Source: Candidatus Harrisonbacteria bacterium
Lineage (GTDB): Bacteria > Patescibacteriota > Minisyncoccia > UBA6257 > UBA11618
Assembly: GCA_016867415.1 (NCBI GenBank)
Contig: VGJO01000002.1
Span: 118,472-182,471, forward strand
Direction of reading: 5' to 3'
DNA length: 64,000 bases
Positions 3,812 through 61,440 of the stretch are shown one piece after another. Under the pieces are notes generated by a model. It saw nothing but the letters and a program-made list of their open reading frames with translations. It searched no databases and was not told where the DNA came from. Each line of letters starts with the position of its first letter. Position 1 is the first letter of the stretch. The translations under genes were made by a program, and so were the position numbers.

Positions 3812-3879
3812 ATAACCCTTATCTTAATATTACCAAACAGATAATCGTGACAAATATGAGCAGGATTTTTGTCCCTATG

Positions 3880-6552: not shown

Positions 6553-6611
6553 AAAATAATCCCGAACATCAAGAAAATCTCCACACCACTAAAAAAGCTC
6601 TCTTCCCTATC

Positions 6612-6742: not shown

Positions 6743-6775
6743 AATTTTTTAAAAATAACAGTACAAATCCGTGCT

Positions 6776-11311: not shown

Positions 11312-11315
11312 GAAG

Positions 11316-12380
11316 TTAGAAGACACTCCCCACCAAATCAGAAGAATTAGATAATGACCTTTTACATTCTTGAACAGCTTGATCAATCTTATTATTAAAA
11401 TCATTTTTAGCAGTAGCTAAAGCAGCTAGTAAATTCTGATTATTTCTTTGGCTAACAAGATCGGACAGATCTTTAAGAGCCTCATAAGCTAATTGAAAAT
11501 TTTCATTTTTCTTAATTAATGCATCTCGGGTACACTGACCAGGAATAGTATTAGACGAAAGCGAATTATTACCTTCCGGCATAATCACCTGCGGCGGCAA
11601 CTGCATCCGAGCTAAACAATCTTTATAATCTTTATACGCTGCCTGTATTGCCGCAATCTTTTTCTCTGATTCATCTGCGTTGATAGCACAATTAAACGAA
11701 GTCAAAGTTTTTAATAACTTCTGAATCTCGGGAATAGTATTCGATACAAAGTTATCTATATTCAGATCTTTTCCATTTACATAATCCTTAACCGAATCGA
11801 CAAAGTCCACCACATCTTTCTTTTCTTTTGGAGATAAACGACAATACTTGTTTTGAGCTAAATTGACATACCGATCATAAGGCAACCCTCGAATAAGAGT
11901 AATAAGATCACTTTTTTTCTTATCTAGTTCCGCCTTATCCGGTATCGCTGGCTCCAAAAGTCCAGAATTTTTTCTCGCTTCAGTCACAAGACCGCTCACA
12001 TACGCCTCCTTATTCTCTCGCTTGGCATACGCTTCCGGGTCCCCAATCCGTCCCATCACATAGGAAGCAATGCTATTTGCATTTCCTTCGTTAATTCCAT
12101 TAAGCTTCGCCGCATCATTCGGATCAAGCGGGGTATCAAAAAGATACTTCGGTGAGGTGACATTAAAAGTAATCGTATGCGGCCCCAGTTTTCTCACGCA
12201 GGTATAGGTCGTGTGATAAACAGCGTCATCTCCCGGCTTGCACTCCGCCGCCTGCACCTCCTCCGCTAACGGAAAAATAGTTTTTTGTTTAGCAACAACA
12301 AGCAAAAGTAAACTTACAAAAATAAGAGAAAGAATCAAATATTTTTTTCTGTTATTTCCAGTATTTTTTTTCTTTTTCAT
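11316..12380 (-). CDS. Secreted hypothetical protein
   Basis: 354 aa; N-terminal KKKK + hydrophobic signal (YLILSLIFVSLLLLVVA); several Cys; no known motif. Confidence 0.55.
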   Translation of the reverse strand: MKKKKNTGNNRKKYLILSLIFVSLLLLVVAKQKTIFPLAEEVQAAECKPGDDAVYHTTYTCVRKLGPHTITFNVTSPKYLFDTPLDPNDAAKLNGINEGNANSIASYVMGRIGDPEAYAKRENKEAYVSGLVTEARKNSGLLEPAIPDKAELDKKKSDLITLIRGLPYDRYVNLAQNKYCRLSPKEKKDVVDFVDSVKDYVNGKDLNIDNFVSNTIPEIQKLLKTLTSFNCAINADESEKKIAAIQAAYKDYKDCLARMQLPPQVIMPEGNNSLSSNTIPGQCTRDALIKKNENFQLAYEALKDLSDLVSQRNNQNLLAALATAKNDFNNKIDQAVQECKRSLSNSSDLVGSVF

Positions 12381-12383
12381 GAA

Positions 12384-13832: not shown

Positions 13833-13882
13833 AAACTCTTTCTTGAAGAATATCATAATAAAAAAAGAATGTTTTCCCCAGA

Positions 13883-15982: not shown

Positions 15983-16079
15983 GACCAGACTCCTGAAAAA
16001 GAGATTTGAATATTTTCAAACTGCCACTATTACTCATATATTATAGCATACCAGATATACAAAAGTCAATAGTAACCCC

Positions 16080-16330
16080 GAAGTTGTCAAGTACCCTTAT
16101 AAAATAAGGGTTCTAGAGATTGTCATCCTAGACCACGATCCAGAATCCAGGGCTTGCCGTCTTTGGCGAGCCTCGCTAAAAGCGGGACCCGGAATCTCGT
16201 AGCGGAGCCCTTAGGCCACGTGGGACAGTATTCTTTCCTTTACGTGGCGAAGACCCTGGAACGGGACAAGGCTTGCCGCTTATGGCGGTATTCATAAGTA
16301 ACTAACTATTTTCTCTTAAGATGTTGTGGG
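16080..16330. ncRNA. Candidate structured non-coding region (unassigned)
   Basis: GC-enriched ORF-free stretch with several stems: gccacgt...acgtggc (7 bp), gggcttgccg/ggcgagcc, ccgc-ttatg-gcgg; ggcttgccg occurs twice. Confidence 0.2.
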
Positions 16331-16387: not shown

Positions 16388-16528
16388 ACGTTACACGTCG
16401 TCAAGCGCAGGATTTTTGGATGGAGTTTGCGATTTCTTTCCGAGGAGCCGCCGCAGCGTACTAAGAGCTAGGTACGTGAGGAGGCACCGCAGGAAAAAAT
16501 CGCAAAATCCGCCAAAAAGACCAGCTCG
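16388..16528 (+). repeat. Family A intergenic repeat, copy R3 (abuts dnaE stop codon)
   Basis: gcgcaggatttttggatggagtttgcgatttctttccgag...cagcgtactaagagctaggtacgtgagg...gaaaaaatcgcaaaatccgccaaaaag; last base 16528, dnaE stop 16529-16531. Confidence 0.75.
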
Positions 16529-19500
16529 TTAAATAGATTTTATCTTCTCGAGTATAAATTTTGGTTCTCCGTTCCTATGACTCATTCGGCCTGAGGCGAG
16601 AATGATTCTCCCCTCCGCCCATTCAAAATTCTTATACTCCTCCACCGTCCGAGGAAATACAATCATCTCGAGTGAATCCCGCGCATCATTCAAGTTTACA
16701 AACATCATCGACTGATTATTCTTGGTAAGAATCTTTTTCACACTTGTCATGAGCCCCGCCACCGCAAAACTCGCCTTCTCATTTGTGACTCCCATCGCGT
16801 CCCTGAGTGTCCGCGCCGTAAGTTTCCCCCGATACGGATTAAACGGATGATCCGAGATATAAAGGCCGAGAAGCTCCTTCTCCCACTCGAGCTTCTGCTT
16901 CACACTCGCGGGTGCTACCTCCTTGAGCTTCAACTGCCCCTTAAACTCATCCTTCATTCCAAAAAGTGATCCCGCCGCCTTCTTCTTATACTCCCTGAGT
17001 AGCTGGCTATACCGCAAAATCTCATCCAAATTTTCATTCGCCATATTCCGCTCGACGCCGAGAGAATCAAAAACTCCGCACTTCACGAGCGCCTCAAGCG
17101 ACTTTTTATTAAGATCCCGATGCTCAATCCGGTTCAAAATATCCCGCATTGTCTTATATGCTCCCCCTCGTCCCCGCTCCTCAATCAAAAGCTTTACGAT
17201 ATTTTCCCCCACATTTTTAATCGCGAGGAGTCCAAATCGAATCTCCAGCTTCTCAGGATACGGTGCAAACTCCACCTCGCTCTCATTGATATCCGGCGGC
17301 AACACTTTGATCCGCATCTTCCGACATTCCTCCACAAGAAACGCCACCCGCTCAATATCCCCCGCATCGTTATTTAAGAGTGCCGTCATAAATTCCACGG
17401 GATAATGCGCCCGCAAATATGCTGTCTGATAGCCAATAAAGGCATAGCAGACCGCGTGCGATTTATTAAATCCATATCGCGCAAACGGTGGAAAGAGCTC
17501 CCAGATCTGGACCGCAATATGATCCGGAATTCCGTTTTCAATCATTCCTTTTGTGAGCTTCTCCCGCTGTTCTTCCAAAAGTGCCTTAATCTTTTTCCCG
17601 ATTGCCTTGCGAAGCGTATCCGCCTCAGCGAGCGTATAGCCGGCGAGATCCCGCGCGATTCGCATCATCTGCTCCTGATAGAGACCGATCCCATACGTGT
17701 CCCGCATGATTGGCTCGAGTCCCGGATGCAAATAGGTCGTCTCCTCTCGCCCATGCTTTCTCGCGATAAACGATGGGATAAGATCCATCGGCCCCGGCCG
17801 ATACGCGGCGACCAATGCCACCAGGTCATCGAGCCGTGTGGGTTGGAGCTCCTTCATATACCGCCGCATACCCGACGATTCAAATTGAAAGACTCCCGTC
17901 GTCTCCCCCCGCTGGAGCATCTCATATGTCTCTGGGTCATCAAGCGGCAAAGTATTAATGTCCACATGCCCCTTTCCGTTTTCTTTAATCAGTCGCACTG
18001 TCTCCTCCATGATCGATAAATTTTTCAGTCCTAAGATATCCATCTTAAGAAGTCCTAGAGACTCAATCGCATGCATTTCAAATTGAGTGATAATCGCCGA
18101 TTCATCCTGTGGCGCATACTGAAGCGGTACATAGTGTGAAAGCGGCTTATCCCCGATCACGATGCCGCAGGCATGCACAGACGCGTGCCGCGTGAGTCCC
18201 TCGAGCTTCCGGGACGCATCGATGATCTGCTTTGCGTCCGCCTCTTTTTCATAGAGCTCTTTGAGCTCTGGCACCGTATCCATCGCCGTCTCCAAGTCCT
18301 CATTAAATGGGATTAGTTTTGCCACCCGATCGCAAAAGCCATAGCTCACTCCAAGCGCTCGCCCCGCATCCCGCACCGCCGCCCGCGCTGCCATCGTCCC
18401 AAAAGTGATAATATTAGCCACTTGATCCTTCCCATATTTATCCCGCAGATATTGCACCACTCGATCCCGCCCCTTATCCGCGATATCGGTATCGATATCC
18501 GGCATTTGAATACGATCGGGGTTTAAAAACCGTTCAAAAAGCAAATCATATTTCAATGGATCCACGTTCGTGATCCCAGTGATATACGCCACGATCGATC
18601 CGGCCGCCGAGCCTCTCCCTGGTCCCACGATGATCCCTTGGCTCCGCGCCCAAGCTATAAAATCCTGCACGATAAGAAAATATGCCGGATACCCCATCCG
18701 CTCGATGACCGAGAGCTCATACTCCACCCGATCTAGCACTATTTTATTTGGCTCCGCCCCATACCGTGTTGGCAGTCGCCCTTCTACAATTTTTCTCAAG
18801 TATGTCGCCGCTGTCTCATCTTCAGGCAAGGGAAATTTGGGCAAAATGGTTTTCCCCAGTTCCAACGTTACCTTGCATCGCTCCGCGATTTTTCCCGTGT
18901 TCTCAATCGCCTCCGGCAAATCGACAAAACATTCCCGCATCATGGCCTCACTCCTCATGGAGAAATCATCCATCCGCATGCCGCCTGCCTTCCCTGCAAT
19001 CTTTCTTGGCCCCTGAGCCTCTCCCTCCACATTACCGCTATGCAGCTTATTGCTCATCTGCACCGCGAGCAGTATCTCATGATATGGCGCATCCTCCTTC
19101 TTCTTATAGTGCACGTCCTGTGTGGCAACCAGTGGCGCCCCGATCTCCTTGCTTATCCAAAGCAACCCCGCCCGCACTCGCTCATGATCTTCTGGAAAAC
19201 ATTTCGGGTGATGCGACACTTCAATAAAATAATTATCTTTGCCAAAAATATTCTGATGGCGCTTCGCCGCCTCCAATGCCTCCTCCCGCTTCCCCAATAG
19301 CAAGTTGCGAATCACCTCGCCCGAATAGCATCCCGAGAGCGCAATCAGCCCCTCGTGATACTCTGAAAGGAGCTCCATATCCATCCGCGGCTTATAATAA
19401 AAACCCTCAAGATTCGCCCGAGTAGTCAGCTGAATCAAATTTTTCCACCCTGTCTCGTTTTCGCAAAGAAGCGTGAGGTGATAGTACTTATTATCCACTC

Positions 19501-23297: not shown

Positions 23298-23330
23298 GCC
23301 CCGGACAATCGTGTCCGGGGATTTTTTTAT
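23298..23330 (+). terminator. Rho-independent terminator
   Basis: ccccggaca-atcg-tgtccgggg followed by atttttttat. Confidence 0.65.
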
Positions 23331-23339
23331 CTTGTCATT

Positions 23340-23675
23340 CCAGATTAAATCTAGAATCTATATAAATAAAAAGCTTGAGCGATAGCAAAAGCTCACCTAA
23401 GGTGTAAACCTTCGTTTCATAAAAACGAAGAAATCAATCTTTGATTAAAAAAAGTCGGAGACTTTTTACTCCCTCCTCCACTACTCACGCCACCCAATCT
23501 CTCTACTACCAAAGAAACTTTTATCTTCTCCTAAAATGACCATCCACAGAAAAATGGCATGGTTTTTTTATGGTAATGCTTTTTCTTCTTCTGTCCTCAA
23601 CGGATTGCCATAAAAAAAATTTTCAAGGACAGAAGAAAAAGCCGCTGGGCTTTTTATGGGTCACGGAAGGAAAAG
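23340..23675 (+). repeat. Family B composite repeat, near-full copy B1
   Basis: ataaataaaaagc...cttcgtttcataaaaacgaag...aaaaaagtcggagacttttt...ccaaagaaactttt...atgaccatccacagaaaaatggcatggttttttt...ttttcaaggacagaag...gggtcacggaagg. Confidence 0.65.
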
Positions 23676-23701
23676 AGAAAGTTTCTAAAAAACAATAAGC
23701 T

Positions 23702-25117
23702 TTATCTCTTTAAGATATCCAGTAAAACAGACTTGATAATCTCTGGATTTCCTTGGCCTTTTAATTCCCTCATCACTTGTCCTAAGAAAAACTGGAGAAG
23801 ATTTTTATTTCCTGCCCTATATCTCATTACCACCTCTTCATTTTCAGAAACCACTTTCTCCACTACCTCCTGAATTCTCTTCTTATCCGAAATCTGTCCC
23901 AACCCCCTCTCTTCCACCAGTTTTTTTGGCGAAATTCCTTTCTCTTGCATCACTCCAATCAAATCCTTCGCTGTTCGGCTATTTATCTCTCCACTACTTA
24001 AAAGATAAATGAGCTCGGAAAGTGCCAAGGGCTTTATCCGTAGCCCCTCAAACTCCACTCCCTTTTCTTTCAAAAAACCAAAAATATCTGACGTTAAATA
24101 ATTATAGACTAGTCCCGCCTGACGCTTATCTTTAAGCTCCGATACCGCCTCCTCAAAATATTCCGCTATTTTTGGATCTTCTATCAAAATATCTGCCTGT
24201 TCTCTTGTAAGTTCATATTCCTTAGTCATCCGGACTCGCTTTTCCTCCGGAAGTTCTGGGATACTCCGCCGTATTTCTTCTATCTTAAATGCCTCTTTGG
24301 TAAACGGTGGCAAATCCGGCTCTGGAAAATAGCGGTAGTCATGCGCCTCTTCCTTGCTCCGCTGAGATACTGTTTTTTTCTCCACATCATCCCATCCGCG
24401 TGTTTCCTGCGTTACTTTCTCTCCATTCTTGATCAGCTCTTCCTGTCGCGCCGCTTCATAATCAATCGCGTCCGCGAGCGCCTTAAAGCTATTAATATTT
24501 TTTACCTCTACCTTCGTCCCCATGTTAAGCGACACGTTAGCCTCGAGCCGCATCTCTCCCCGCTCCATATTTCCGCCTGATACATTGAGGTACCGCAAAA
24601 TCCGCTGGAGCTCCTCGGCAAATTCTTTCGCCTGCTCCGCACTCCGGATGTCCGGCTCAGTCACAAGCTCCATGAGCGGCACCCCCGCCCGATTTAAGTC
24701 CACAAGACTCGCGTCTTTTGCGTGAGCAAGCCGCCCCGCATCCTCCTCCAAATGAATCCGAGTAATCCCTACCCCCAAGAGCTTTCCACCCGAAACAATT
24801 GGCTCATCATATTGCGAGATCTGATACCCCTTTGGCAGATCCGGATAAAAATAATTCTTCCTATCAAATTTCGCCCGACCGCTCGGAAATATCTCTCCGC
24901 CCAAAGCTAATCCCACCTTGATCACCGACTCAATTGCTTTTTTGTTTGCGACCGGCAGTGCCCCCGGATGCCCCGCGCAGATCGGGCAGACATGCTCATT
25001 CGGCCGGCCCTGATGCGGATCATTCAGACACTCGCAAAACATCTTCGTCTTCGTAAGTAGCTCCGCGTGAATCTCTAAGCCCACCGTCACCTGATATTTC
25101 TTCTCCCTACTTTCCAT
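23702..25117 (-). CDS. gatB: Asp-tRNA(Asn)/Glu-tRNA(Gln) amidotransferase subunit B
   Basis: ORF 23702..25237; GatB motifs YQVTVGLEIHAELLTKTKMFC...NEHVCPICAGHPGALP; start moved to internal MESREKK. Confidence 0.88.
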   Translation of the reverse strand: MESREKKYQVTVGLEIHAELLTKTKMFCECLNDPHQGRPNEHVCPICAGHPGALPVANKKAIESVIKVGLALGGEIFPSGRAKFDRKNYFYPDLPKGYQISQYDEPIVSGGKLLGVGITRIHLEEDAGRLAHAKDASLVDLNRAGVPLMELVTEPDIRSAEQAKEFAEELQRILRYLNVSGGNMERGEMRLEANVSLNMGTKVEVKNINSFKALADAIDYEAARQEELIKNGEKVTQETRGWDDVEKKTVSQRSKEEAHDYRYFPEPDLPPFTKEAFKIEEIRRSIPELPEEKRVRMTKEYELTREQADILIEDPKIAEYFEEAVSELKDKRQAGLVYNYLTSDIFGFLKEKGVEFEGLRIKPLALSELIYLLSSGEINSRTAKDLIGVMQEKGISPKKLVEERGLGQISDKKRIQEVVEKVVSENEEVVMRYRAGNKNLLQFFLGQVMRELKGQGNPEIIKSVLLDILKR

Positions 25118-25310
25118 AACTATTGCTCCCGCATTCTCCCACATTTCCTCTCTTTTTTCCACATTGCTTCTCCATAACGTACTCGTGATGGAAGGATCCG
25201 AAATCCAGTACATATACTTTGTCACTATAAGCGGCATTATATAAATTCTCTCCGTTTTTTCGTTTTCTAATTTCCAAATACTAATTACTAAACACTCTTT
25301 TATCTTGAGC

Positions 25311-26416: not shown

Positions 26417-26553
26417 ATCCAGCACAGATGTAAGTGAAGTAATTTTGGAGGATTTTTCGATTTTCTTTTCGAGCAGGCATCGGAGCATACTGCGGGAAGT
26501 ATGTGAGAAGCCAGCGCATAAAAAAAATCGAAAAAGACCCAAAAGTACAAGCG
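26417..26553 (+). repeat. Family A intergenic repeat, copy R4 (abuts nusG stop codon)
   Basis: aagtgaagtaattttggaggatttttcgattttcttttcgagcaggcatcggagcatactgcgggaagtatgtgagaagccagcgcataaaaaaaatcgaaaaagacccaaaagtacaagcg; nusG stop 26554-26556. Confidence 0.8.
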
Positions 26554-34039: not shown

Positions 34040-34251
34040 AGGGCACCTACTTTCGTTTTGAGGGAGTTTTTAAACTTCATTCATAGGGTTACTAAACATT
34101 CACCCTTTCTCTTATATTATAGCATACTAAATACACCAATGTCAATATATAGCCCAAAAACTATTAATAAAACCTGTAAAATAAGGATAATTTACAATTT
34201 TAATTGTGCGTAAACAGTCTATTTGTAAAAAATCTAATCCCAAGGGCCGCC

Positions 34252-34444: not shown

Positions 34445-34464
34445 ATAAAAAAGCAAGCTTTTTG

Positions 34465-34538
34465 TGGCTGGGGTGGGGGTCGAACCCACGACCTAGGGGT
34501 TATGATTCCCTCGCTCTAACCAACTGAGCTACCCAGCC
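34465..34538 (-). tRNA. tRNA-Met or tRNA-Ile2 (anticodon CAT), elongator type
   Basis: Cloverleaf resembling elongator tRNA-Met: GGCUGGG acceptor, GCUCAGUUGGUUAGAGC D arm, loop AUCAUAA, T arm GUGGG-UUCGACC-CCCAC. Confidence 0.75.
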
Positions 34539-34669
34539 TACTTCTACAGAGAATGTAAAGCTCATAATAGCTTATTTTCCGGCACTTTAAAAGATGTAAT
34601 CATTTTTCTTTACGTGACTACCTTAGCGTTTATACCTCCTATTCCGGAAAAGTAAAACGTATCCTTATT

Positions 34670-34812
34670 GCGACCTTCTGCAGAAAAGAAGCTTGGCTTT
34701 TTTGTGATATGCTTTTGTCTAGTTTTCTATCCTCAAAGGCATACCACAAAAAATTCTTTTCGAAGCCTGAATGAGAGCTCGCAGGAGCTTTCATGTGTCG
34801 TAATAAGGATAT
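34670..34812 (+). repeat. Family B repeat, 3' module copy B4
   Basis: gaccttctgcagaaaag...ttttttgtgatatgcttttg...cataccacaaaaaattcttttcgaagcctgaatgagagctcgcaggagctttcatgtgtc. Confidence 0.6.
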
Positions 34813-34835
34813 TTTTTACTTTTCCCCTCCCTTTG

Positions 34836-34907
34836 TTGCCGGGGTCGGATTTGAACCGACGACCTTCGGATTATGAGCCCGACGAGCTACCACTGCTCCA
34901 CCCGGCG
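34836..34907 (-). tRNA. Initiator tRNA-fMet (anticodon CAT)
   Basis: Near-identical to canonical bacterial initiator: CGCCGGGUGGAGCAGUGGUAGCUCGUCGGGCUCAUAAUCCGAAGGUCGUCGGUUCAAAUCCGACCCCGGCAA with C1xA72 mismatch and three G-C pairs in the anticodon stem. Confidence 0.85.
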
Positions 34908-35747: not shown

Positions 35748-35882
35748 CCTCAGTTCCATGAAGTAATTTTGAATAAAGTTTCGCGATTCTTTCCGAAGAG
35801 CCAAGGAAGCACTACTAAGAGCTGAGTATGTGAAGAGGTGCCATAGAAAAAACCGCGAAAATTCTCCAAAAGTACGAGCGCC
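35748..35882 (+). repeat. Family A intergenic repeat, copy R6 (abuts mrdA stop codon)
   Basis: gaagtaattttgaataaagtttcgcgattctttccgaag...ctgagtatgtgaag...gaaaaaaccgcgaaaattctccaaaagtacgagcgcc; mrdA stop 35883-35885. Confidence 0.75.
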
Positions 35883-37712
35883 TTAAGGTTTCCCAAACCG
35901 ATGAGCATACCACCAGCTAAATACTTGATGCGCTATCGGAATAGTGTTTAGACTCCCATCCTTTGAATCCTCGATTAAAACTAAAATCGCAATTTTCGGA
36001 TCTTCCGCTGGCGCATATCCCACAAAAAACGCATTAGTCTTTTTATTATTCTGAATCTGCGCGCTTCCCGTCTTTCCCGAAATCATCATTGGAATATTAT
36101 TCAGCAAATGTGCCGTCCCATATTCCTTCGTCACCGAATCCCGTAATCCTTTTTTTATCTCATAGATAAGCGGATAAAGATCCGAAAGATCCAAGGACAT
36201 TTTAGGCTCATGGAGCGCCGCAATATTTCCCCTCGCATCCGTCACCGACTTTCCCACAAACGGTACAAATTCCTTCCCATCATTTGCAATCATTGCAATC
36301 GATGAAATAAGCCGCAAAGGCGTAAGCGCCAAATCCCCCTGCCCAATGCTCACATTGTAGGTATCTCCAATCCGCCACGCCGATCCCGTCTTTTCTTCCT
36401 TTTCCTCCGGAGTATAAAAAAATCCTTTTCCCTCCGCCGGCAAATCCACTCCCGTCTTCTCCCCAAACTGAAATCTAGCCCACCATTCCTGAAGCTTCTT
36501 GATTCCCAGTCCCTTCGTCCGCTCAAATCCTCCTCCAACATAGTAAAAATAGACATTGCTCGAGCGGGCGAGCGCAGAATACAGATTTACCCAACCGTGC
36601 GGTTTCCAATCCAAAAATCGTGATGGCTTATCAGGAAAATATGGATTAGGAATTTCAATATGTCCTTTAGAATAAAATTCATCCGTCGTTTTCATCACTC
36701 CCTCCTTTAGCCCTGCAAGCGCCACAAAGGGTTTGTACGTTGACCCTGGTGAGTAGACTCCCGACAATGCCCGATTAAAAAGCGGCTGCCCGGAAGCACC
36801 CAGATACTTCGCCGGTTCATTATTGTTGTAAGATGGAAAATTAACTAAAGATAAAATCTCTCCCGTCTTGGGATTAATCGCTATCCCCACTCCGGCCGTG
36901 CGTGAGAGTCTCGTAAGTCCTTCCTGAAATGCCTTATAAAATACCCGCTGTAATGGTGCGTCAATCGTAGTCACCAAATCATGTCCCAACTCCGACTTTT
37001 GCGTCACTGTCTCCGAAAGGATCTTTCCCTTAACATCTCGAAACTTGGTAAAAATCCCATCCTTACCTTTAAGATCTTTATTATACTGTGCCTCCAGTCC
37101 CGTGTCCCCGACTATAAACTGCCCCGAATCATGGAGTCGAGTATAGCCCAAAACATGAGCAAATATCTCCGGGTCAAAATATTCTCGTTTATAATCATTC
37201 CGCACTCGGAGCGCCGGAAAAGAAAGTACCTTTGCTTCGAGCGCTTGCTCCACTGGTATATTATGAAGAAGCACCACTTCTCCCCCCTCACCTTTCTTAA
37301 ATTTTTCTATTTTTTCTCCCACTCCTTCTCCCGGAAAAATAAGCGCTAATATAGACAGCATTTCTCTTTGCTCCTCTTTCTTCATCTGAAAATAATCCGC
37401 CACCGATAGCGTCAAAGAAAAAGCCGGCGAATTCCGCAAAAGCGGCTCATGATTTCTATCATAAATAATTCCCCGAAGAGCTGGGGTCCGGATCTCTTTA
37501 TTGACATTTGATTCCGCCCGCACCCGATAATTTTCGCCTTGAATAACGGAAAAATAAAATACTCGCAAAAAAAGAAAAAAGATAAGCCCGCTTGTGGTAA
37601 GGAGCATGAATGAAAAAACTCTCTCCGAAATGCCTAATTCTATCCGGCCATAGCGCCTGTTTTCTTCAAAAAGAGCCTCATCAAAATCAATTTGTGGCTT
37701 TATATTCTTCAC
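35883..37712 (-). CDS. mrdA: Penicillin-binding protein 2 (peptidoglycan D,D-transpeptidase)
   Basis: 609 aa; N-terminal TM; dimerisation domain; transpeptidase motifs STYKPF, SSN, KTGS/A; follows mreBCD. Confidence 0.85.
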   Translation of the reverse strand: MKNIKPQIDFDEALFEENRRYGRIELGISERVFSFMLLTTSGLIFFLFLRVFYFSVIQGENYRVRAESNVNKEIRTPALRGIIYDRNHEPLLRNSPAFSLTLSVADYFQMKKEEQREMLSILALIFPGEGVGEKIEKFKKGEGGEVVLLHNIPVEQALEAKVLSFPALRVRNDYKREYFDPEIFAHVLGYTRLHDSGQFIVGDTGLEAQYNKDLKGKDGIFTKFRDVKGKILSETVTQKSELGHDLVTTIDAPLQRVFYKAFQEGLTRLSRTAGVGIAINPKTGEILSLVNFPSYNNNEPAKYLGASGQPLFNRALSGVYSPGSTYKPFVALAGLKEGVMKTTDEFYSKGHIEIPNPYFPDKPSRFLDWKPHGWVNLYSALARSSNVYFYYVGGGFERTKGLGIKKLQEWWARFQFGEKTGVDLPAEGKGFFYTPEEKEEKTGSAWRIGDTYNVSIGQGDLALTPLRLISSIAMIANDGKEFVPFVGKSVTDARGNIAALHEPKMSLDLSDLYPLIYEIKKGLRDSVTKEYGTAHLLNNIPMMISGKTGSAQIQNNKKTNAFFVGYAPAEDPKIAILVLIEDSKDGSLNTIPIAHQVFSWWYAHRFGKP

Positions 37713-39960: not shown

Positions 39961-40112
39961 CGTGCATACAAACTAATCTATCTCCTTTATTTTTTCAATC
40001 TCTCTTATTGTCATCCCGGGCTTAACTCGGAATCCAGTAATCTACCTCCAAAGGAGGTATTATAAGATTCCTTACCTTTTTCTCGTTTATAAAACATTAG
40101 ATAAAAAAATCC

Positions 40113-40136
40113 CATGCATTATTTGCATAATGCATG
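40113..40136. promoter_or_regulatory. Perfect 10-bp inverted repeat (candidate operator) upstream of mreB
   Basis: catgcattat-ttgc-ataatgcatg located about 150 nt upstream of mreB start. Confidence 0.3.
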
Positions 40137-40359
40137 AGACAAACACCCTCCCTCGGAAAAATTTACCGAGAGAAAACAAACCAATTGATCGGGTTAGTGA
40201 GATCGCGGAGGTAAATGAGATTGGTAGTCTGCCAATCCTTTTCCTTCGCAAAAGTACAAGTAGACTACCGCTCGTCAAATACTCAGAGTTTCTTTACCTA
40301 GGGGTGAGCCTTTGTTTTTTAAAACAGAGGATACATTATCGATTGTACCCAATCGATAT

Positions 40360-40592
40360 TGCATAAAAAAGTCCCCGACTTTTTACTCACCCCGTCTACC
40401 CTACCATCCTCACCTAATTCTAGCATCACCAAGAAATATTTCTCTCCCTTGAGTGACCATCCGCAGAAAAGTGGCATGGTTTTTTTGTGTTGTTATTTTG
40501 TCTTCCCTGCCCTCAAAAGAACAACACAAAAAACACTTTTCGAGGAAAGAATAAAAAATTCGCAGGAATTTTTTATGCGTCACGAAGAGGAG
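40360..40592 (+). repeat. Family B composite repeat, copy B2
   Basis: aaaagtccccgactttttactcacc...ccaagaaatattt...gagtgaccatccgcagaaaagtggcatggtttttttgtgttgttattttg...caacacaaaaaacacttttcgagg...atgcgtcacgaag. Confidence 0.65.
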
Positions 40593-40623
40593 AGAAATAT
40601 TTCAAAAAATACCCAATACAAAA

Positions 40624-41823
40624 TTATCCAAAAACCCTCTTAATCATTTCTTCCTCCCCCACCACCTCACTCTTTGCTCTTCCTCTTTTCTTAATCTCCA
40701 CCTCCCCCTCTGGTACCCGATCCGAGATCACTATTCTATAAGGGCACCCGATCATATCCGCATCCACAAATTTTACTCCCGCCGGCTCCTCCCGGTCATC
40801 AAAAAGCACTTCATGTCCCTGAACTATTAATTTTTCATACAAATCCTTTGCTCGCTCCCGCGTCTTCTCCTCCTTCCCAAGCACCAAAAGATGTGCTTGA
40901 AACGGCGCCACGGCCTCCGGCCAGACGATCCCCTGCTCATCATGAGACACCTCGACAATCGTCCCTAAGACTCGTGTCGGCCCGATCCCATACGACGCCA
41001 TAAAAAACTTTTCTGAAAATCGCTTCCCTAGTCGGAAAATATTTCCCACCTCAATCGCCTTTTTCTCCTCTATCTTTCCCTTACTGCACTGCGGACACTG
41101 CTCTCCCGCGCCCACCTTAGCAATCTCTTTGTTCTGGCAAAAGCCACACCCCGCTTCGCAGACATAGATAAGATCCTCTCCCGACTCCGCCACCACCTGA
41201 AACTCATGTGTGTAGTCTTTAGTAAAATCCCCTCCCGAAGCTTCGCAGACAAGCGCCTGAAGGCCTACTCGCGCAAATACTCGCTTGTACGCCTCTGCCA
41301 CCACCTCGTAGTATGCGCGCATATCCGCCTCTGTCGCATGAAAACTATATAAGTCCTTCATGAGAAATTCCCGTCCGCGCAAAATACCGCTCTTCGCCCG
41401 CGCCTCTTTCCGAAACTTAGTCTGGATCTGATATACTGCCCTCGGCAAAAACTTTTCCGCCACCAAATATTTCTCGCCAATCTCTGCGATTACCTCCTCG
41501 TGCGTCCAGCCGAGTCCATATTCCTCTCCATCCGCCCCAGTAAGCTTGTAGACTACAGGCACTTCCCACCGTCCCGACTGCTCCCAAATTCGCTTCGGGA
41601 TCAAAGCCGGCATCGAGAGCTCCTCCGCTCCCACGCCATTCATCTCCTCTCGGATAATCGCATTGATTTTATGTAGTACTCGCTGCCCAAGAGGCAAAAG
41701 CGTATACACCCCTGCCGCCGTTTTTGACAGAAAGCCAGCCCGGATCAAATACCGCGCATTGATAGCCTCCTCATCCTTAGGCCACTGATCTAAGACCCGC
41801 GCAAACTGCCTAGACTGTAACAT
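40624..41823 (-). CDS. proS: Prolyl-tRNA synthetase, minimal form without editing insertion (probable)
   Basis: 399 aa; class II motif 2 RGREFLMKDLYSFH; WEQSGRWE; Cys-rich insertion CEAGCGFCQN...CPQC; C-terminal anticodon-binding domain. Confidence 0.6.
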   Translation of the reverse strand: MLQSRQFARVLDQWPKDEEAINARYLIRAGFLSKTAAGVYTLLPLGQRVLHKINAIIREEMNGVGAEELSMPALIPKRIWEQSGRWEVPVVYKLTGADGEEYGLGWTHEEVIAEIGEKYLVAEKFLPRAVYQIQTKFRKEARAKSGILRGREFLMKDLYSFHATEADMRAYYEVVAEAYKRVFARVGLQALVCEASGGDFTKDYTHEFQVVAESGEDLIYVCEAGCGFCQNKEIAKVGAGEQCPQCSKGKIEEKKAIEVGNIFRLGKRFSEKFFMASYGIGPTRVLGTIVEVSHDEQGIVWPEAVAPFQAHLLVLGKEEKTRERAKDLYEKLIVQGHEVLFDDREEPAGVKFVDADMIGCPYRIVISDRVPEGEVEIKKRGRAKSEVVGEEEMIKRVFG

Positions 41824-45816: not shown

Positions 45817-45980
45817 AAAAAATTATTTTTGAAGCCTGAATGAAAGCTTGCTGGATCATAGGACTTTTTGTGCTCTAATAGTCTGAAGATCCACAGTACT
45901 TGGGGGCCTTTCATGTATTGGGAAAAACTTGAGCTTATTTTTTTCCTCTCCCTCTAAATTACTATCTACTAGCCACTGCT

Positions 45981-47505: not shown

Positions 47506-48939
47506 TTAAGGGAATTGATGCAAAAAATCAAAAAAGTGGTAGATGGCAGGTGGCAGTATCGGTAGTAATGATTGCAGTAATAGTAGTGATAATGCAGGTG
47601 CAGGTGCAGGTGCAGGTGTAGGTGCAGGTGTAGGTGCAGGTGTAGGTGTAGATGTAGGTTCAGGTGTAGGTGTAGGTGTAGGAGTAGGTGTAGGAGTAGG
47701 TGTAGGAGTAGGAGGAGGAGCAGGAGGAGGAGCAGGAGGAGGAGGAGGAGGTGGAGGAGGAGGAGGAGGAGGTGGAGGTGGAGGTGGAGGTGGAGGTGGA
47801 GGAGGAGGTGGAGGTGGAGGTGGAGGTGGAGGAGGAGTAAGTTCAGTTGCATGAGGAGGTTCAGGTGTAGGTTCAGGTGTAGGTTCAAGTGTAGGTGAGC
47901 CGTCTACTAGGGCGCCGCCATCGCCGCCATTGCCGCGATTGCCGCCATCGCCACCATTGCCACCATTGCCACCATTGCCGCCATTGCCGCCATTGCCGCG
48001 ATTGCCGCCATTGCCGCCATCGCCGCCATTGCCGCCATCGCCTGTATTGCCTGTATTGTCTGTATTGCCTGTGAATCCAGTCAACTTTGAAATTTCATTT
48101 AATATTAGTTTACGTTCATCAGAATCTCTCAAAAATTTTTCGGCTATTTTTTCAATTTTCGCTTCTATTTCGGCTTGGCTTTTTGGTGACCAAGATTCAA
48201 TAGCGGCAGGCAAAGAACTGGCTTCAATAAAACTATCATTGATGAATACTGGCACTTCTTCTCTCCTTGATTCTCCTCCATACGCTTGGGCTGTTAACCT
48301 CCCCATTTCATTGTTCTTATTCGAAGCAAATCCCCGTTTCCATCCCAATTTTTGCTCTATCCATCTGACCACCCACTGCTCAAAGGATTCGGCCGCTGCC
48401 GCATTCGCCTGCAAGCTTGCGAATCGGACACCCACCGAATAACTCCCGAAAGTATAGTGGTAAAAAAACAATGTATCTTCATTTGTATCCGGATTAATTC
48501 CATTTTTCCCGTTTTGTGGATCAATCGGCAAAGCATCAATCTGAATCCCAGGAATCTGCCGAAAATCAATTGGTAGCCAACCACTTCCATCAATCTGCGT
48601 AAGTCGCTCTTTTGGCACACATCGGTAATCATACCCCTCCGCTAATTGAAGCAAACCCCGATCTCTCCAATAGCCACAAGTCGGATCATCATCTGGTAAG
48701 GAAACATAGACAAGCCGCCGCTCCCCTAAAAGAGCATATTGAGCCTGCTCATCTATAAAGCTAATAAGTTGAGAAAGAAACTTAAGATCTTTATTGCGTT
48801 GCCGATCTACCTGAAAACGAAAAAATTCCAAAGGATTAATCGTCACCGAAAATACCCCTGCAATAAGAAAAAAAGACACCCCGATAAGCAAGGCTTTCAC
48901 CGGAAAAGATAAACGCTCGAGCCTCTGCATGAGCTCCAT
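47506..48939 (-). CDS. Membrane-anchored/secreted hypothetical protein with GN-rich, poly-Pro (34 P) and (TP)n tail
   Basis: 477 aa; N-terminal TM ALLIGVSFFLIAGVF; ~300-aa globular region; then GNGGNGGDGG repeats, P34 run, TPTPTP repeats, hydrophobic C-terminus. Confidence 0.65.
   Translation of the reverse strand: MELMQRLERLSFPVKALLIGVSFFLIAGVFSVTINPLEFFRFQVDRQRNKDLKFLSQLISFIDEQAQYALLGERRLVYVSLPDDDPTCGYWRDRGLLQLAEGYDYRCVPKERLTQIDGSGWLPIDFRQIPGIQIDALPIDPQNGKNGINPDTNEDTLFFYHYTFGSYSVGVRFASLQANAAAAESFEQWVVRWIEQKLGWKRGFASNKNNEMGRLTAQAYGGESRREEVPVFINDSFIEASSLPAAIESWSPKSQAEIEAKIEKIAEKFLRDSDERKLILNEISKLTGFTGNTDNTGNTGDGGNGGDGGNGGNRGNGGNGGNGGNGGNGGDGGNRGNGGDGGALVDGSPTLEPTPEPTPEPPHATELTPPPPPPPPPPPPPPPPPPPPPPPPPPPPPPPPPPAPPPAPPPTPTPTPTPTPTPTPTPEPTSTPTPAPTPAPTPAPAPAPALSLLLLQSLLPILPPAIYHFFDFLHQFP
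47594..48062. repeat. Coding simple-sequence repeats (hexamer ggtgca/ggtgta, trimer gga/ggt, nonamer gccgccatt)
   Basis: Visible runs caggtgcaggtgcaggtgtagg..., ggaggaggaggtggaggtgg..., gccattgccgccattgccgcgattgcc... Confidence 0.9.
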
Positions 48940-50498: not shown

Positions 50499-50583
50499 AC
50501 CAAAATAAATGTTTACAAATTCTACTATAACCCAAACAAAAAATCAATACTAAAAATTTTCAAAATAAAAGCATTATTTCATC

Positions 50584-50805
50584 ACGCTAGCACCCAGCAT
50601 AAGCGAAGTAATTTTGAGCTTATTTTCGTTCTTCTTTTCTAAAAAGGTACCGGAGCATACTACAGGAAGTATGTGAGGAACGTTTTTAGAAAAAAGGATG
50701 AGCCTCCACTACTACTAGATAAACAAAGAAAAAGAAGAAACAGAATAATCAGTAGAAGAGAGATAAGGTCGGCTACACGAGCGAAAGAAGCCAAAAATAC
50801 GAGCG
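50584..50805 (+). repeat. Family A repeat copy R7 carrying a ~100-nt nested insertion (GAGCCTCCAC motif)
   Basis: acgctagcacccagcataagcgaagtaattttgag...ggagcatactacaggaagtatgtgagg... then atgagcctccactactactag...aatcagtagaag... then gccaaaaatacgagcg; rpoA stop 50812-50814. Confidence 0.7.
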
Positions 50806-56640: not shown

Positions 56641-56780
56641 AACAGCGAATAACGTAAGCGAAGTAATTTTGGATGGAGTTTGCGATTTCTTTTCGAGCAG
56701 GCACCGCAGCATACTGGGCTAAGTCTGTGAGGAGCCAGCGGAGAAAAAAATCGCAAAATCCGCCAAAATTACAAGCACCC
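56641..56780 (+). repeat. Family A intergenic repeat, copy R8 (ends 2 nt before rpmB stop codon)
   Basis: aacgtaagcgaagtaattttggatggagtttgcgatttcttttcgagcaggcaccgcagcatactgggctaagtctgtgaggagccagcggagaaaaaaatcgcaaaatccgccaaaattacaagcaccc. Confidence 0.8.
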
Positions 56781-56782
56781 AG

Positions 56783-56971
56783 CTACTTGGTAGACTTAAC
56801 AGAAGTCCGCATGCATTGAGTACACAACAAACCCCTACTTCCATCAGGCAAAGTTCCCTTCTGTAAATTCGGCTGCTTTCTCGTCCAATTCACCGGATTA
56901 TAATGGCCGCGCAAGAGCTTTCTCGCCCCCACCATTCGCGATCCTTTTTTACACACTGCACACTGTCTCAT
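56783..56971 (-). CDS. rpmB: 50S ribosomal protein L28
   Basis: 62 aa; CAVCKKGSRMVGARKL..GHYNP..TRKQPNLQK matches L28 family pattern. Confidence 0.75.
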   Translation of the reverse strand: MRQCAVCKKGSRMVGARKLLRGHYNPVNWTRKQPNLQKGTLPDGSRGLLCTQCMRTSVKSTK

Positions 56972-57269
56972 ACAAGTAAAATTAAGTATCCGTAATTCTA
57001 CCTTATCTCCTCTTTTTTTGCAAATGAATCAGAGCGGACGGCAAAAAAATCATGTAGCCACACCATATCCTGCCTATCCGGCTGCCTTGCCTCCCCCGAC
57101 GCGCCGATTGGTTGCACCACATAAATGATCTTATATTGGAGAAGTTCCTTTTTCCTAATATGTTCCCATACCACCTGATCCTGTGTTACTCATGTTGTCT
57201 TCGCCGTCCATCATACCACCTGAGCCTTTGTTTTCTTAAAAAAAATAATTCAATCGAAGATTGAAGAAA

Positions 57270-57590
57270 AAAGTCTTTGACTTTTTGCTCACCCCTCCAC
57301 TCTCTCCTCTCTTTATTACATCTCAATCTCTGCGCCAGCAAAGAACTCTACCTTTCCCGTGAGTGACCTTCTGCAGGACGAGCTTCCACAAAGAAAAATA
57401 TTCTTTAAAGAAAAAAACAAAAGCATCAGTATAAAAAGACTAAAACAAGATAAAGTCAGCGAGGCATGGTTTTTTCATGGTGTTATTTTTTCTTCTTCTT
57501 TCCCAAAAATAACACCATGAAAAATTTTCTCCGAAGCCTGAATGAAAGCTCGCAGGAGCTTTCATGTGTCACGAAGGGGAAAGGTGGGGT
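57270..57590 (+). repeat. Family B composite repeat, copy B3
   Basis: aaaaagtctttgactttttgctcacc...gtgaccttctgcag...catggtgttatttttt...aaaataacaccatg...gcctgaatgaaagctcgcaggagctttcatgtgtcacgaagg. Confidence 0.7.
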
Positions 57591-57644
57591 TCTTCTAAAA
57601 GATAAAAAGTACTGGATTCCAGCTCGGGGGCCGGAATGACAAGC

Positions 57645-59390
57645 TTACTTAACTACCGCTCTAATACGTCTTATTCCTGCCCCCACCGCCTCGTCTTTCA
57701 CAATCTGAAACTCCCCCACCTCCCCTGTATGCGTCACATGAGGCCCCCCGCAAAATTCCTTTGAGATCGCCTCATCAAGACTTTTTCCTACATAATACAC
57801 CTTCACCCGCTCTGGATATTTTTCTTTAAAGAAATATAAAGCTCCCGTTCTCTTAGCCTCTTCTATTGGCATCTCTTCATATGAGACCAAGAGATCCTCA
57901 CTCACCATATTACGCACCCAAGTCTCCACCTGCCGCAGTTCCTCCTCGGTGAGTTTCCGAGGCGCCGCATAGTCAAATCGTAATCGCTCACTGGTAATAT
58001 CACTCCCTGCCTGCTTGACCTCTGGTCCCAGCACTTCCCGAAGTGCCGCCTGTAGCAAATGCGTCGCCGTGTGAAGCCGAGTCACCTTCTTCACCTCCTC
58101 CTCGCTCCCCGCCTTTAGCTCTCCTGTATCCAGGATTAATCCGTGCCCGCCAAACTTCTTTTCCATCCCCGCCTTTGACACCTCCCGATGCTTCTCCATC
58201 TCCGCATCAAATTCCGCTCGAGTAAAAGCCAGCCGCCCCTCGCCCCGGTCCTTGATCACTTCATAAGACAATCCATAGCTTTCATACAAACGAAAGGCTT
58301 CCTTCGCCCCGATCTTCATGATGCTAGCCATCTCCCGCAACCCTTTCCCTAGGCTTTTCTCAAACTTTCCCCGCTCTTTGGTGAGTACCTGAAAGGCCTC
58401 GTGTGCCCGCAAGTCATAGAGTCCCTTATATATCCCCTCAATCTGCTCAAAAATCTTTTCGTAAGGAATCTTTCGTTCCCGCGCCAAAACCCGTCGAATG
58501 AGCCGCCGCAAGACATAGCCCACCTCTTTATTCGATGGCATGACCCCATCGCTTATGAGAAAAAGAGCGCTTCGCAAGTGATCCGCAATCATCCGCTGCT
58601 CCCTCTCCTCTGTCACTTCTCCTCCTATCTCTTCCGCTATCTTTTGAAGCGGCCCTACCTCATACACCGATTTCTTTGCATTAATAATTGTTACGAGCCG
58701 CTCAAGACCCATCCCAGTATCTACTCCGGGACTTGAGAGATTCTCAAGACTCGCCTTCCCTGAAAGAAGCTCCTCCCGACTCCCTGAACAAAAAAACTGA
58801 TTAAAGACAATATTCCAGACCTCAATCCCATCCACATAGATCTCCGTCGTCGGTCCGCATGGACCATTCTTCCCCGTCGGCCCCCAAAAATTATCCTCCA
58901 TTCCCGAAAAATGGATCCGCTCCTCTGGTATCCCCATCTCTTCCCTCCAGATCCGAAAAGACTCCTCATCCCTCGGCACTCCGTCTGTCCCTTCAAAGAC
59001 CGAAACCTCGATCCGGGACACATCCACCCCTAATTCCTTCACAATAAACTCATACCCAAAGCGAATGCTTTCTTCTTTGAGATAATCACCAAAAGAAAAA
59101 TTCCCGAGCATTTCAAAAAAGGTGAGATGCGTATCATCCCCCACCTCATCGATATCACTCGTCCGAAAGCACTTCTGCGCCGACGCCACCCTCCGCCCGC
59201 CAAAATCCCGCATCGGATCCAGCTCCCCTGTATAATATTTCTTAAATTGCTGTACTCCCGCCGTAGTCAAAAGCACCGACGGATCATCAGGTAAAAGCGA
59301 AGACGACGAAACCACCCGATGCCCCTGCCGCTCAAAATACTCCAAAAATTTTTTCCTCACCAAAAAATAATCCATAGAAACTTCCCTCAA
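57645..59390 (-). CDS. alaS: Alanyl-tRNA synthetase, short form (catalytic + tRNA-recognition + editing domains; no C-Ala domain)
   Basis: 581 aa; class II core ...FEMLGNFSFGDY...; editing-domain HTATHLLQAALREVLG and CGGPHV. Confidence 0.88.
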   Translation of the reverse strand: MREVSMDYFLVRKKFLEYFERQGHRVVSSSSLLPDDPSVLLTTAGVQQFKKYYTGELDPMRDFGGRRVASAQKCFRTSDIDEVGDDTHLTFFEMLGNFSFGDYLKEESIRFGYEFIVKELGVDVSRIEVSVFEGTDGVPRDEESFRIWREEMGIPEERIHFSGMEDNFWGPTGKNGPCGPTTEIYVDGIEVWNIVFNQFFCSGSREELLSGKASLENLSSPGVDTGMGLERLVTIINAKKSVYEVGPLQKIAEEIGGEVTEEREQRMIADHLRSALFLISDGVMPSNKEVGYVLRRLIRRVLARERKIPYEKIFEQIEGIYKGLYDLRAHEAFQVLTKERGKFEKSLGKGLREMASIMKIGAKEAFRLYESYGLSYEVIKDRGEGRLAFTRAEFDAEMEKHREVSKAGMEKKFGGHGLILDTGELKAGSEEEVKKVTRLHTATHLLQAALREVLGPEVKQAGSDITSERLRFDYAAPRKLTEEELRQVETWVRNMVSEDLLVSYEEMPIEEAKRTGALYFFKEKYPERVKVYYVGKSLDEAISKEFCGGPHVTHTGEVGEFQIVKDEAVGAGIRRIRAVVK

Positions 59391-59464: not shown

Positions 59465-59770
59465 ACATGTCGGATCCGCGAAGTAATTTTGGAGGATTTT
59501 TCGATTTTCTTTCCGAGTATGAGCCTCCACTACTAAAAGATAGTCTTATGCAATATAAAAACAATAGAATCAGTAGTGAAAATCAGAAAGAGGAACGATG
59601 AGCACAAGAGAGTATATCGAAGGCGATTAGTACTCTAATCGCCTGAAGATCCCGAGTACTCTTGGGGCAATCCATTCTGTGAGTACCGAGCACAGAAAAA
59701 AAATGAAAAGGAGCCTCCACAAGCAATAGTAGAAAATTAGAAAAGGTCAGCGACCCAAAATTACGAACAC
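59465..59770 (+). repeat. Family A repeat copy R9 split by a ~215-nt nested insertion bounded by GAGCCTCCAC-type repeats; abuts stop of 59771..61051
   Basis: gcgaagtaattttggaggatttttcgattttctttccgagt | atgagcctccactactaaaag...ggagcctccacaagcaatagtag | ...cagcgacccaaaattacgaacac followed by cta (stop, minus). Confidence 0.65.
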
Positions 59771-61224: not shown

Positions 61225-61440
61225 CGACACCTCGCCACGGGATTTTTTATAAATAAAAGGGCTTAAGTGAAGTGAAAGACTACCAAAGGAGTATGTCTTC
61301 GTTTCTGGGAAACGAAGAAAAGAAATATTAATTGTGTTCAATCAAAATTTCTTTGAAAAGATTGTAAATCTTTTGCTTACTCCTCCACTTTCCGCCCCGC
61401 CAATCTCGACATTACCAAAGAAATATTTTTTTAAAACAAT
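61225..61440 (+). repeat. Family B repeat, 5' module only (B7)
   Basis: ataaataaaagggcttaagtg...cttcgtttctgggaaacgaagaaa...cttactcctccactttccgcc...ccaaagaaatattttt parallels 23340-23520 of copy B1; runs to the rpoD stop. Confidence 0.5.

Follow-up and report, generated by a model that had tools for sequence, protein, structure and literature searches.

The DNA considered here, a stretch of 64,000 nucleotides termed the window, comes from the genome of an uncultured member of the Patescibacteria, or candidate phyla radiation (CPR), assigned to Candidatus Harrisonbacteria (contig VGJO01000002.1). Its genes lie almost all on the minus strand, and its GC skew is monotonic throughout. The subject of this work is a dispersed, non-coding repeat designated Family B, one copy of which (flagged stretch 57270-57590) lies directly downstream of alaS, and further copies or fragments of which follow gatB, proS, rnc, rpoD, murA and an initiator tRNA gene. 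The identities of the six flanking protein genes were confirmed. AlaS and ProS are short forms of their enzymes (581 and 399 aa, respectively), the window includes an RNase III gene (rnc), and the tRNA at 34835-34907 is a tRNA-Met (CAT) in which the C1xA72 initiator feature was spotted by eye.

A repeat at these seven sites had been proposed in a first-pass annotation, and it is real, far beyond chance, as judged from self-BLAST and from the scores of two covariance models against their background. Self-BLAST joins the copies pairwise at E-values of 1e-9 to 4e-30 (23432-23691 with 40351-40609; 40473-40594 with 57463-57583; 34688-34799 with 57461-57570; 6576-6755 with 23496-23691; 23354-23522 with 61241-61428). 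The models, R1 built from five copies of a core domain and run with filters off, and R2 representing a distal module, were searched across the whole window. R1 matches exactly the five cores at 108-146 bits, the next-best match in the window reaching 16 bits, and R2 matches exactly four distal modules at 91-115 bits, with the next best at 22 bits. Ungapped repeat finding likewise recovers the family (repeat families D9, D10 and D13-D15). All seven sites exist at or near the positions first given, and the motifs reported there are present: AAAAAGTC-N4-GACTTTTT, CCTCCACT, CCAAAGAAA, GTGACC..GCAGAAAAG..GGCATGGTTTTTT, TTTTCGAG and the hairpin ATGAAAGCTC-GCAG-GAGCTTTCAT. This last had been described as a second perfect hairpin; its sequence stands in the alaS and tRNA copies, and the other copies form the same hairpin with different sequence. 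In ~19 kb of additional flanking DNA from the organism, which brings the total covered to ~83 kb, no further copy was found. The copies are as follows, the helices of the core being labelled P0 to P3.

57221-57609, minus strand: alaS composite, 3' of the alaS stop (57645), its limits set by BLAST against the proS and gatB copies; R1 57356-57580 at 140 bits, R2 57237-57352 at 101 bits; order on the minus strand outer stem P0, core, distal module, extension
23354-23699, minus strand: gatB copy; core 23529-23672 (23508-23695 with P0), distal module 23421-23523, and an extension common to the rpoD copy
40305-40609, minus strand: proS copy; core 40446-40591 (40425-40607 with P0), distal module 40325-40443; identical in six contigs from other samples
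34655-34826, minus strand: tRNA copy, core only (R1 34663-34809), between tRNA-fMet (34835-34907) and a second tRNA-Met (34464-34538); P0 and P1 together form a 31-bp stem
6576-6760, minus strand: rnc copy; core (R1 6605-6736 at 108 bits) with a degenerate P3, and the first part only of the distal module
61241-61430, minus strand: rpoD copy, beginning directly after the rpoD stop; distal module (61317-61429, R2 115 bits) and extension, no core
45817-45930, minus strand: fragment in the murA 3' flank, comprising J2/3 and a P2-like hairpin with extra loop sequence; 87% identity over 39 nt to 34748-34786 and 57519-57557 (D15), R1 only 12.6 bits

The family is thus built from separable modules, which occur as core plus distal module (gatB, proS, alaS), as core alone (tRNA-fMet spacer), as distal module without a core (rpoD), as core plus the start of the distal module (rnc) and as a fragment (murA flank); three of the four distal modules are joined to a core. 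Among themselves, the five core sequences are only 54-73% identical.

What these divergent cores share is a fold. RNAalifold, applied to the five cores on the gene-sense (minus) strand, returns a three-way junction, a domain of ~170-190 nt in which P0 and P1 close a junction carrying P2 and P3. P1 is the GUGAC/GUCAC helix, corresponding to the GTGAC...GTCAC motif that had been taken to bound the module, and in it 3 of 5 pairs are invariant and 96% of cells are paired. P2 is a hairpin of ~10 bp, 7 of whose 10 pairs change on both sides among the copies, and P3 leads from a GAAAAG/CUUUUC base past a bulge of 7 nt (ACCAUGC) to a long A/U-rich hairpin whose apical loop is purine-rich, with compensatory changes at 7 of 18 pairs and 95% of cells paired. 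The outer stem P0, of 10-31 bp, extends P1 with a pyrimidine-rich 5' arm and a purine-rich 3' arm; it was found in every core copy with a sequence that differs each time and yet is complementary (CCUUUCCC, AUAUUUCUCUCC, CUUUUCCU, UAUCCUUAUUAC and CUCUCUUUCU). The elements of the alaS copy are these.

57577-57596, minus strand: P0 5' arm, AGAAGAACCCCACCUUUCCC, pairing with 57340-57358
57568-57572, minus strand: P1 5' arm GUGAC, the 'gtcac' end on the plus strand
57542-57565, minus strand: P2 hairpin, AUGAAAGCUC-CUGC-GAGCUUUCAU
57471-57524, minus strand: P3 hairpin, an inverted self-match in BLAST
57378-57462, minus strand: module X within the core, ~85 nt, absent from the other Family B copies
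57363-57367, minus strand: P1 3' arm GUCAC, the 'gtgac' start on the plus strand
57340-57358, minus strand: P0 3' arm, GGGAAAGGUAGAGUUCUUU
57237-57352, minus strand: distal module, UUCUUUGCUGG..GAGAUUG..GUGGAGGGGUGAGC, R2 101.5 bits
57267-57286, minus strand: distal hairpin AAAAAAGUC-UUU-GACUUUUU
57250-57264, minus strand: distal hairpin UCAAUC-UUCG-AUUGA

Both the pairing and its covariation withstand comparison with controls, giving strong support for the conserved fold that the first-pass annotation had proposed to examine by alignment. In the alignment, 91% of pair cells form standard pairs, as against 47-52% when the partners are slid and 78% when sequences are shuffled, and two-sided changes occur at 18 of 39 pairs, as against 0-4 in the slid controls; not one of 500 shuffles matches the observed values for pairing and covariation. 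Energies of the flank duplexes run from -17 to -29 kcal/mol compared with -6 to -13 for shuffles (alaS, -23.8 against a shuffled mean of -12.9; the tRNA copy, -26.1 against -5.8), and the predicted folds of the whole domain reach -44 to -88 kcal/mol. Since the flanks outside P1 also pair, as P0, the GTGAC/GTCAC pair is the inner helix of a larger closed domain and not the terminus of a transposon or other element. The helices are nearly all Watson-Crick, because one-sided variation occurs at only 2 of the 39 pairs.

The distal module includes a conserved UUCUUUGGU...GAGAUUG stretch, a GGAGG-rich stretch, a AAAAAGUC-N4-GACUUUUUU hairpin and a further CAAUC/GAUUG hairpin, and it terminates in an A-tract, hairpin and U-tract. 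The AAAAAGUC-N4-GACUUUUUU hairpin has a U tract and a mirror-image A tract but only 2-3 G-C pairs, and a terminator consensus scan makes no call on it; canonical terminators lie elsewhere in the same spacers (40140-40109 and 23299-23320). JGI gene calls are inconsistent on an open reading frame (ORF) in this module, and a small-ORF reading was rejected by eye, as the copies differ from one another within hairpin loops, and in ways that move the reading frame.

These results bear on the simplest dismissal of Family B, namely that it reflects chance or low complexity in A/T-rich spacers, or is an RNA family already described, such as a T-box, ribozyme or leader. The spacers are indeed A/T-rich, several modules contain homopolymer runs, a three-way junction is also the form of the hammerhead, and three copies stand near genes for aminoacyl-tRNA synthetases or amidotransferase, as T-boxes do. 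However, the model scores stand ~100 bits over background, the BLAST E-values descend to 4e-30, and the pairing is not reproduced by slid or shuffled controls. A search of the window with Rfam 15 at gathering thresholds returned only 4 tRNAs and the L10 leader and no match to Family B, and at E-values up to 10 the alaS and proS spacers gave, on both strands, only generic hairpin matches (miRNA and leader models) far below threshold, with no T-box or ribozyme model among them. The hammerhead and the T-box (UGGN bulge) had also been considered by eye and were set aside, the junctions lacking CUGANGA...GAAA and the elements lying downstream of genes, not upstream. This account is highly improbable and is effectively refuted by the Rfam, R1 and control results.

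Core copies begin 8-45 nt past the 3' end of what precedes them, a minus-strand protein gene in four cases and tRNA-fMet in the fifth. From stop codon to P0 the distance is ~18 nt at gatB, ~17-21 nt at proS and rnc and ~45 nt at alaS, where a small hairpin intervenes; at tRNA-fMet, P0 starts 8 nt beyond the tRNA. All 10 module copies over the 7 sites share one orientation. The repeat was correctly described at the outset as non-coding, multi-hairpin, modular, uniformly oriented, placed in 3' gene flanks and containing a GTGAC...GTCAC-bounded module. The gatB copy sits between convergent genes and therefore serves as no leader for a downstream gene. Given the short distance from stop codon or tRNA end and the shared orientation, Family B is probably transcribed as 3' untranslated region (UTR) or tRNA-spacer RNA. 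Transcription and replication directions coincide in the window, and orientation therefore cannot separate an RNA-level from a replication-linked cause. Comparison of G·U with A·C was dropped as a guide to the strand: the 39 core pairs favour the plus strand by 11 to 3, the full folds including P0 contain 21 G·U pairs on the minus and 16 on the plus strand, and neither strand folds consistently better. The functional strand is thus not inferable from sequence.

Of the four protein genes that have a core behind them, three encode enzymes of tRNA charging (gatB, 23702-25237; proS, 40624-41823; alaS, 57645-59390), and the fifth core follows the initiator tRNA-Met. A rough binomial value for the protein genes is ~0.003, for an association noticed post hoc with n=5, and a mundane account of the pattern is that those genes end transcription units.

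Together with the fold, this setting raises the prospect that the copies are paralogues of a structured RNA serving the host, either a domain acting in cis in 3' UTRs and tRNA spacers or a separately expressed small RNA, whose three-way junction is under selection. In its cis form such an RNA would provide a processing, stability or translation-linked signal for genes of the translation apparatus. Strong compensatory change despite 54-73% identity, tight and constant spacing behind stop codons and tRNA-fMet, uniform orientation, the tRNA-charging neighbours (post hoc as that association is) and the purine-rich apical loops on the gene-sense strand are all in keeping with it. Several features of the copies argue the other way. 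Conservation in the unpaired columns of the junction does not exceed that in the stems (mean pairwise identity 0.60 vs 0.69), G·U pairs show no strand bias, the rnc copy carries a degenerate P3 and modules occur separately, and the alaS copy tolerates the ~85-nt insertion of module X, which replaces the GAAAAG arm of the P3-base helix and so breaks that helix, a feature that the first description of this copy had omitted. A promoter scan also found no promoter-like site inside the three full copies, on either strand. The family is missing, moreover, from the alaS loci of related genomes, as described below. A host-functional RNA is possible but on the unlikely side. Unlikely, too, is the more specific proposal that Family B represents an undescribed class of structured RNA domain, a three-way junction with a closing helix of 10-31 bp that sits in the 3' UTRs of tRNA-charging genes and in a tRNA-fMet spacer of a CPR lineage, is selected for its structure and acts as a processing or stability signal, such as an RNase III entry site, that coordinates translation-apparatus genes.

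Comparison with relatives places the origin of the repeats within this lineage. In databases the lineage is isolated, the next AlaS outside its own cluster being ~61% identical. In the closest available genome (L007, AlaS 61% identical), the gene upstream of alaS is homologous to that of the window and overlaps the alaS start, and the next gene begins 70 nt after alaS. The junctions around alaS are thus 0 and 70 nt in L007; in the window they are 380 nt, filled by a second repeat family termed Family A, and ~1250 nt, containing Family B, a possible non-coding RNA, rpmB, Family A and tRNA-Pro. From this difference the repeats are regarded as gains in this lineage. At the alaS loci of 34 Patescibacteria relatives (587-608 kb in all), neither R1 nor R2 had a match, and the relatives have no spacer there. 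A metagenome scan with the pattern CCAWGCNNNTTTTCTGNNGANGGTC gave 15 loci, none scoring with R1; two that were read are GC-rich, coding-looking sequence, and the loci were taken as chance matches. Scans of IMG/VR with two patterns and BLAST against phages and plasmids returned nothing similar to Family B, and a literature search found no description of dispersed repeat families in Patescibacteria.

Within the organism itself, all contigs from the JGI, ENA and Logan samples match the window at 99.8-100% identity, and the ProS, RpoD and L10 proteins on these metagenome contigs have identical sequences. A seeming AlaS variant of 97% identity was rejected: it is the same DNA with a one-base deletion within an A run, on an error-rich contig of 1.9 kb (18 mismatches over 1.9 kb). 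The sampled population is clonal.

No direct sign of transposition was found in the DNA covered. Examination of the GTGAC/GTCAC ends for target-site duplications, which had been suggested earlier, revealed none; the flanks repeat each other in inverse and not in direct orientation, and lengthen the closing helix. Direct repeats within the 35-nt flanks reach at most 4-6 nt, the level of shuffled sequence, except at proS. The perfect direct repeat of 11 nt there (GAAATATTTCT) was rejected as a duplication because it is a palindrome in its own right and belongs to P0; nothing comparable occurs beside the alaS, tRNA and rnc copies. Conserved terminal inverted repeats are also absent, only the 5-bp GTGAC/GTCAC pair being conserved and the outer arms varying by copy. 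No transposase, integrase, RAYT or Y1 transposase was found among the 30 window ORFs scanned, no transposase or integrase among the genes called in the additional 19 kb of flanking DNA, and no TnpA within the 83 kb covered. An adjacent transposase gene, as expected if the copies were termini of a known insertion sequence, was therefore not seen among those 30 ORFs.

A lack of terminal inverted repeats and target-site duplications is itself compatible with palindrome-associated transposable elements (PATEs) of the IS200/IS605 type, for which this lack is typical, and brings into view an element acting at the level of DNA. The copies might be single-stranded or cruciform sites for a recombinase or Y1 transposase, with IS200/IS605-type PATEs, REP-RAYT systems and attC-like sites as candidates, or sites for a nucleoid or topoisomerase protein, their orientation being set by the direction of replication. 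Nearly pure Watson-Crick helices, with 2 of 39 pairs varying on one side and no G·U pair on either strand of the proS copy, would fit DNA palindromes or template-switch correction, and the window lies on a single replichore, as its monotonic GC skew indicates, so that replication explains the orientation equally well. Against this stand the want of a Y1 transposase, RAYT or integrase among the ORFs scanned, ends that lack attC core sites, neighbours that are housekeeping genes and not cassettes, and borders at which no conserved cleavage tetranucleotide is visible. The position just behind stop codons also fits a transcript-level constraint better, and a DNA-level role is quite unlikely.

Several well-known repeats of other bacteria offer closer parallels. 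The pneumococcal BOX, RUP and SPRITE repeats were judged to be parasitic but able to form RNA structures and likely to affect co-transcribed genes, on the grounds that they are restricted to a single lineage, enriched downstream of coding sequences (CDSs) and extensively folded into secondary structure; SPRITE is found near 3' termini, is terminator-like and has no identified cognate transposase (Croucher et al. 2011, PMC3049150). The reasoning is the same as that applied here to Family B. Like BOX and SPRITE, Family B is small, non-coding, dispersed, structured, lineage-restricted and found downstream of CDSs, its core, distal module and extension are comparable to the boxA-boxB(n)-boxC modularity of BOX, and, as BOX and SPRITE are co-transcribed with their neighbours, so Family B probably is. 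It has the features that mark the BOX-like class, namely separable modules, non-coding content, stable folds and lineage restriction, where the class is one of function and not of homology: no sequence relationship to BOX or SPRITE was seen. Unlike them, its core is a three-way junction with a closing stem of 10-31 bp instead of a simple hairpin or inverted-repeat unit, its copies are far more divergent (54-73% identity) with compensatory changes, and it resides in a CPR bacterium whose genome is otherwise compact.

Neisserial Correia elements, of ~100-150 bp, have ends that pair into a long transcript hairpin, which is cut or protected by RNase III, and they alter the expression of adjacent genes; as CREEs they are marked by conserved 26-bp terminal inverted repeats, an IHF site and promoter-forming ends (PMC2649163). 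Family B differs in the variable arms of its closing stem. CREEs are further flanked by a TA target duplication; Family B shows no duplication. The REP/BIME and ERIC/IRU repeats of enterobacteria are extragenic palindromes arranged in mosaics at gene 3' ends and between the genes of operons, where REP mosaics stabilise the upstream mRNA against 3' exonucleases, and Family B likewise combines extragenic palindromic units into mosaics at gene 3' ends. REPs, however, are palindromes of ~35 nt with conserved sequence, linked to RAYT transposases, whereas Family B has a branched domain of ~170-190 nt, its units being about five times longer and conserved mainly in structure, and neither a RAYT nor a Y1 protein was seen among the ORFs scanned. 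Integron attC sites lie at gene 3' ends in a single orientation and are imperfect palindromes, conserved in structure, that fold as single strands. Family B resembles them in position, in its one orientation and in keeping structure over sequence; it lacks the R''/R' core sites (RYYYAAC / GTTRRRY), the window contains no integrase or attI, and its neighbours are essential housekeeping genes spread across 55 kb and not a cassette array. Since Family B lacks the conserved terminal repeats and target duplications of classical miniature inverted-repeat transposable elements (MITEs) and the defining features of REPs and attC sites, it is classed only as working like them.

Taken together, the evidence favours, with about even confidence, the view that Family B is a lineage-specific, modular, non-coding dispersed repeat that is maintained for its structure in gene 3' flanks and is probably co-transcribed with the genes it follows. 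Most likely it is a further member of the group of hairpin-forming selfish repeats that includes BOX, Correia and REP, and does not represent a novel type of system. The evidence shows the repeat itself, its fold, modularity and position, and its absence from relatives, whereas transcription, mobility and any effect on RNA are inferred. Its modules would have spread into, or been kept at, sites directly behind genes, where insertion is tolerated. Copies would be transcribed as 3' UTR or tRNA-spacer RNA, and their long perfect helices could block 3' exonucleases on the transcript, aid termination or present a substrate to RNase III; the fold may be kept either by a need of the spreading mechanism or by such an effect at the level of RNA. 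The shuffling of modules, their nesting and the damage they tolerate are typical of mosaic selfish repeats.

A number of observations weigh against classing Family B as a selfish dispersed repeat. Direct evidence of mobility was not found: the copies have no target-site duplication, and the 30 ORFs scanned include neither a transposase or integrase nor a RAYT. No presence/absence polymorphism distinguishes strains, because every contig of the organism is 99.8-100% identical to the window. The variable arms of the closing stem are unlike the terminal inverted repeats that transposases recognise. The copies are old and divergent, and their helices are almost entirely Watson-Crick, which would fit a host-selected structured RNA as well. 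The tRNA-charging genes before three of the four protein-gene cores, together with the core after tRNA-fMet, could point to a function, post hoc as the pattern is, and statistical power is low because there are only 5 cores in ~83 kb.

Family B shares its spacers with other repeats. The ~85-nt module X (GAGCCTCCAC ... A-rich ... AGCGA) is a third repeat: its copy at 57378-57462 is 76% identical to 3879-3964 (BLAST E 1.6e-9) and also related to 50695-50755 and 59516-59576. Three of its copies stand beside or inside copies of Family A and one lies within the alaS Family B core; module X is therefore nested in both families. Family A is found at eight places.

600-748: Family A copy
1153-1279: Family A copy
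16397-16532: Family A copy
26421-26553: Family A copy
35759-35894: Family A copy
50580-50695: Family A copy
56650-56783: Family A copy
59479-59531: Family A copy

Four of these eight were checked, and all four give inverted self-matches of ~110 nt, that is, long imperfect hairpins. Family A also occurs inside normally compact operons (nusG / A / rplK and rplJ / A / rplL), and a diverged copy with module X seems to follow smc at 3860-4060. The two families had been said to occupy most long spacers; with module X, they are present in 16 of 31 spacers whose length is 150 nt or more, about half and not most, and account for ~30% of the bases in those spacers. Logan contigs end where a Family B copy has its outer border (57597) and where a Family A copy starts (59483; A at 59479), which suggests that the repeats or their hairpins break short-read assemblies of this organism.

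Two stretches adjoining Family B copies may hold small RNA genes.

57030-57212, minus strand: non-coding stretch between the alaS Family B copy and rpmB, a candidate non-coding RNA; long closing stem GGACGGCGAAGAC / UUUUUUUGCCGUCC, -56.9 kcal/mol, z -3.1
57239-57210: promoter-like site, TTAAGA-18-TATGAT with an upstream TG; the start would be GGACGGC
40100-40300, minus strand: candidate small RNA gene between the proS Family B copy and mreB; non-coding, ~200 nt, with a strong intrinsic terminator at its end (40140-40109; stem of 14 bp, then a U run)

The alaS composite has this promoter-like site at its downstream edge, where it fits the adjoining candidate RNA. That candidate had no Rfam match at E-values up to 10; 6S and signal recognition particle RNA were considered by eye only, and JGI annotates a 58-aa ORF at 57030-57212.

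Elsewhere, the window contains three further features.

47506-48939, minus strand: 477-aa ORF with long tandem repeats of 9 and 12 nt (units of the GGT/GCA/GGA and GCC-ATT types), which would encode a low-complexity Gly/Ala/Pro-rich protein
9011-15604, minus strand: five successive ORFs of 270-573 aa without a Pfam match; the 9-12 kb part is low in GC (0.31-0.34), a 72-nt tandem repeat lies at 13969-14188, and the block may be an acquired or fast-evolving island
16018-16109 and 34094-34186: two-copy direct repeat in spacers, 71-74% identity (AAAC..CTCATATATTATAGCATAC..), unrelated to families A and B

Patescibacteria have small, densely packed genomes, and against that background the repeats described here expand to 380-1250 nt junctions that measure 0-70 nt in a relative. 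Structured repeats can evidently still be carried or exploited by a reduced, probably symbiotic genome, and the fold of Family B is unusually well kept for its level of divergence. For those who work with such genomes, the repeats coincide with the ends of short-read contigs and give rise to spurious ORF calls. If the repeats are transcribed, about a dozen housekeeping transcripts would bear very stable 3' structures, and these would offer a route to the study of mRNA and tRNA 3'-end processing in an uncultured lineage.

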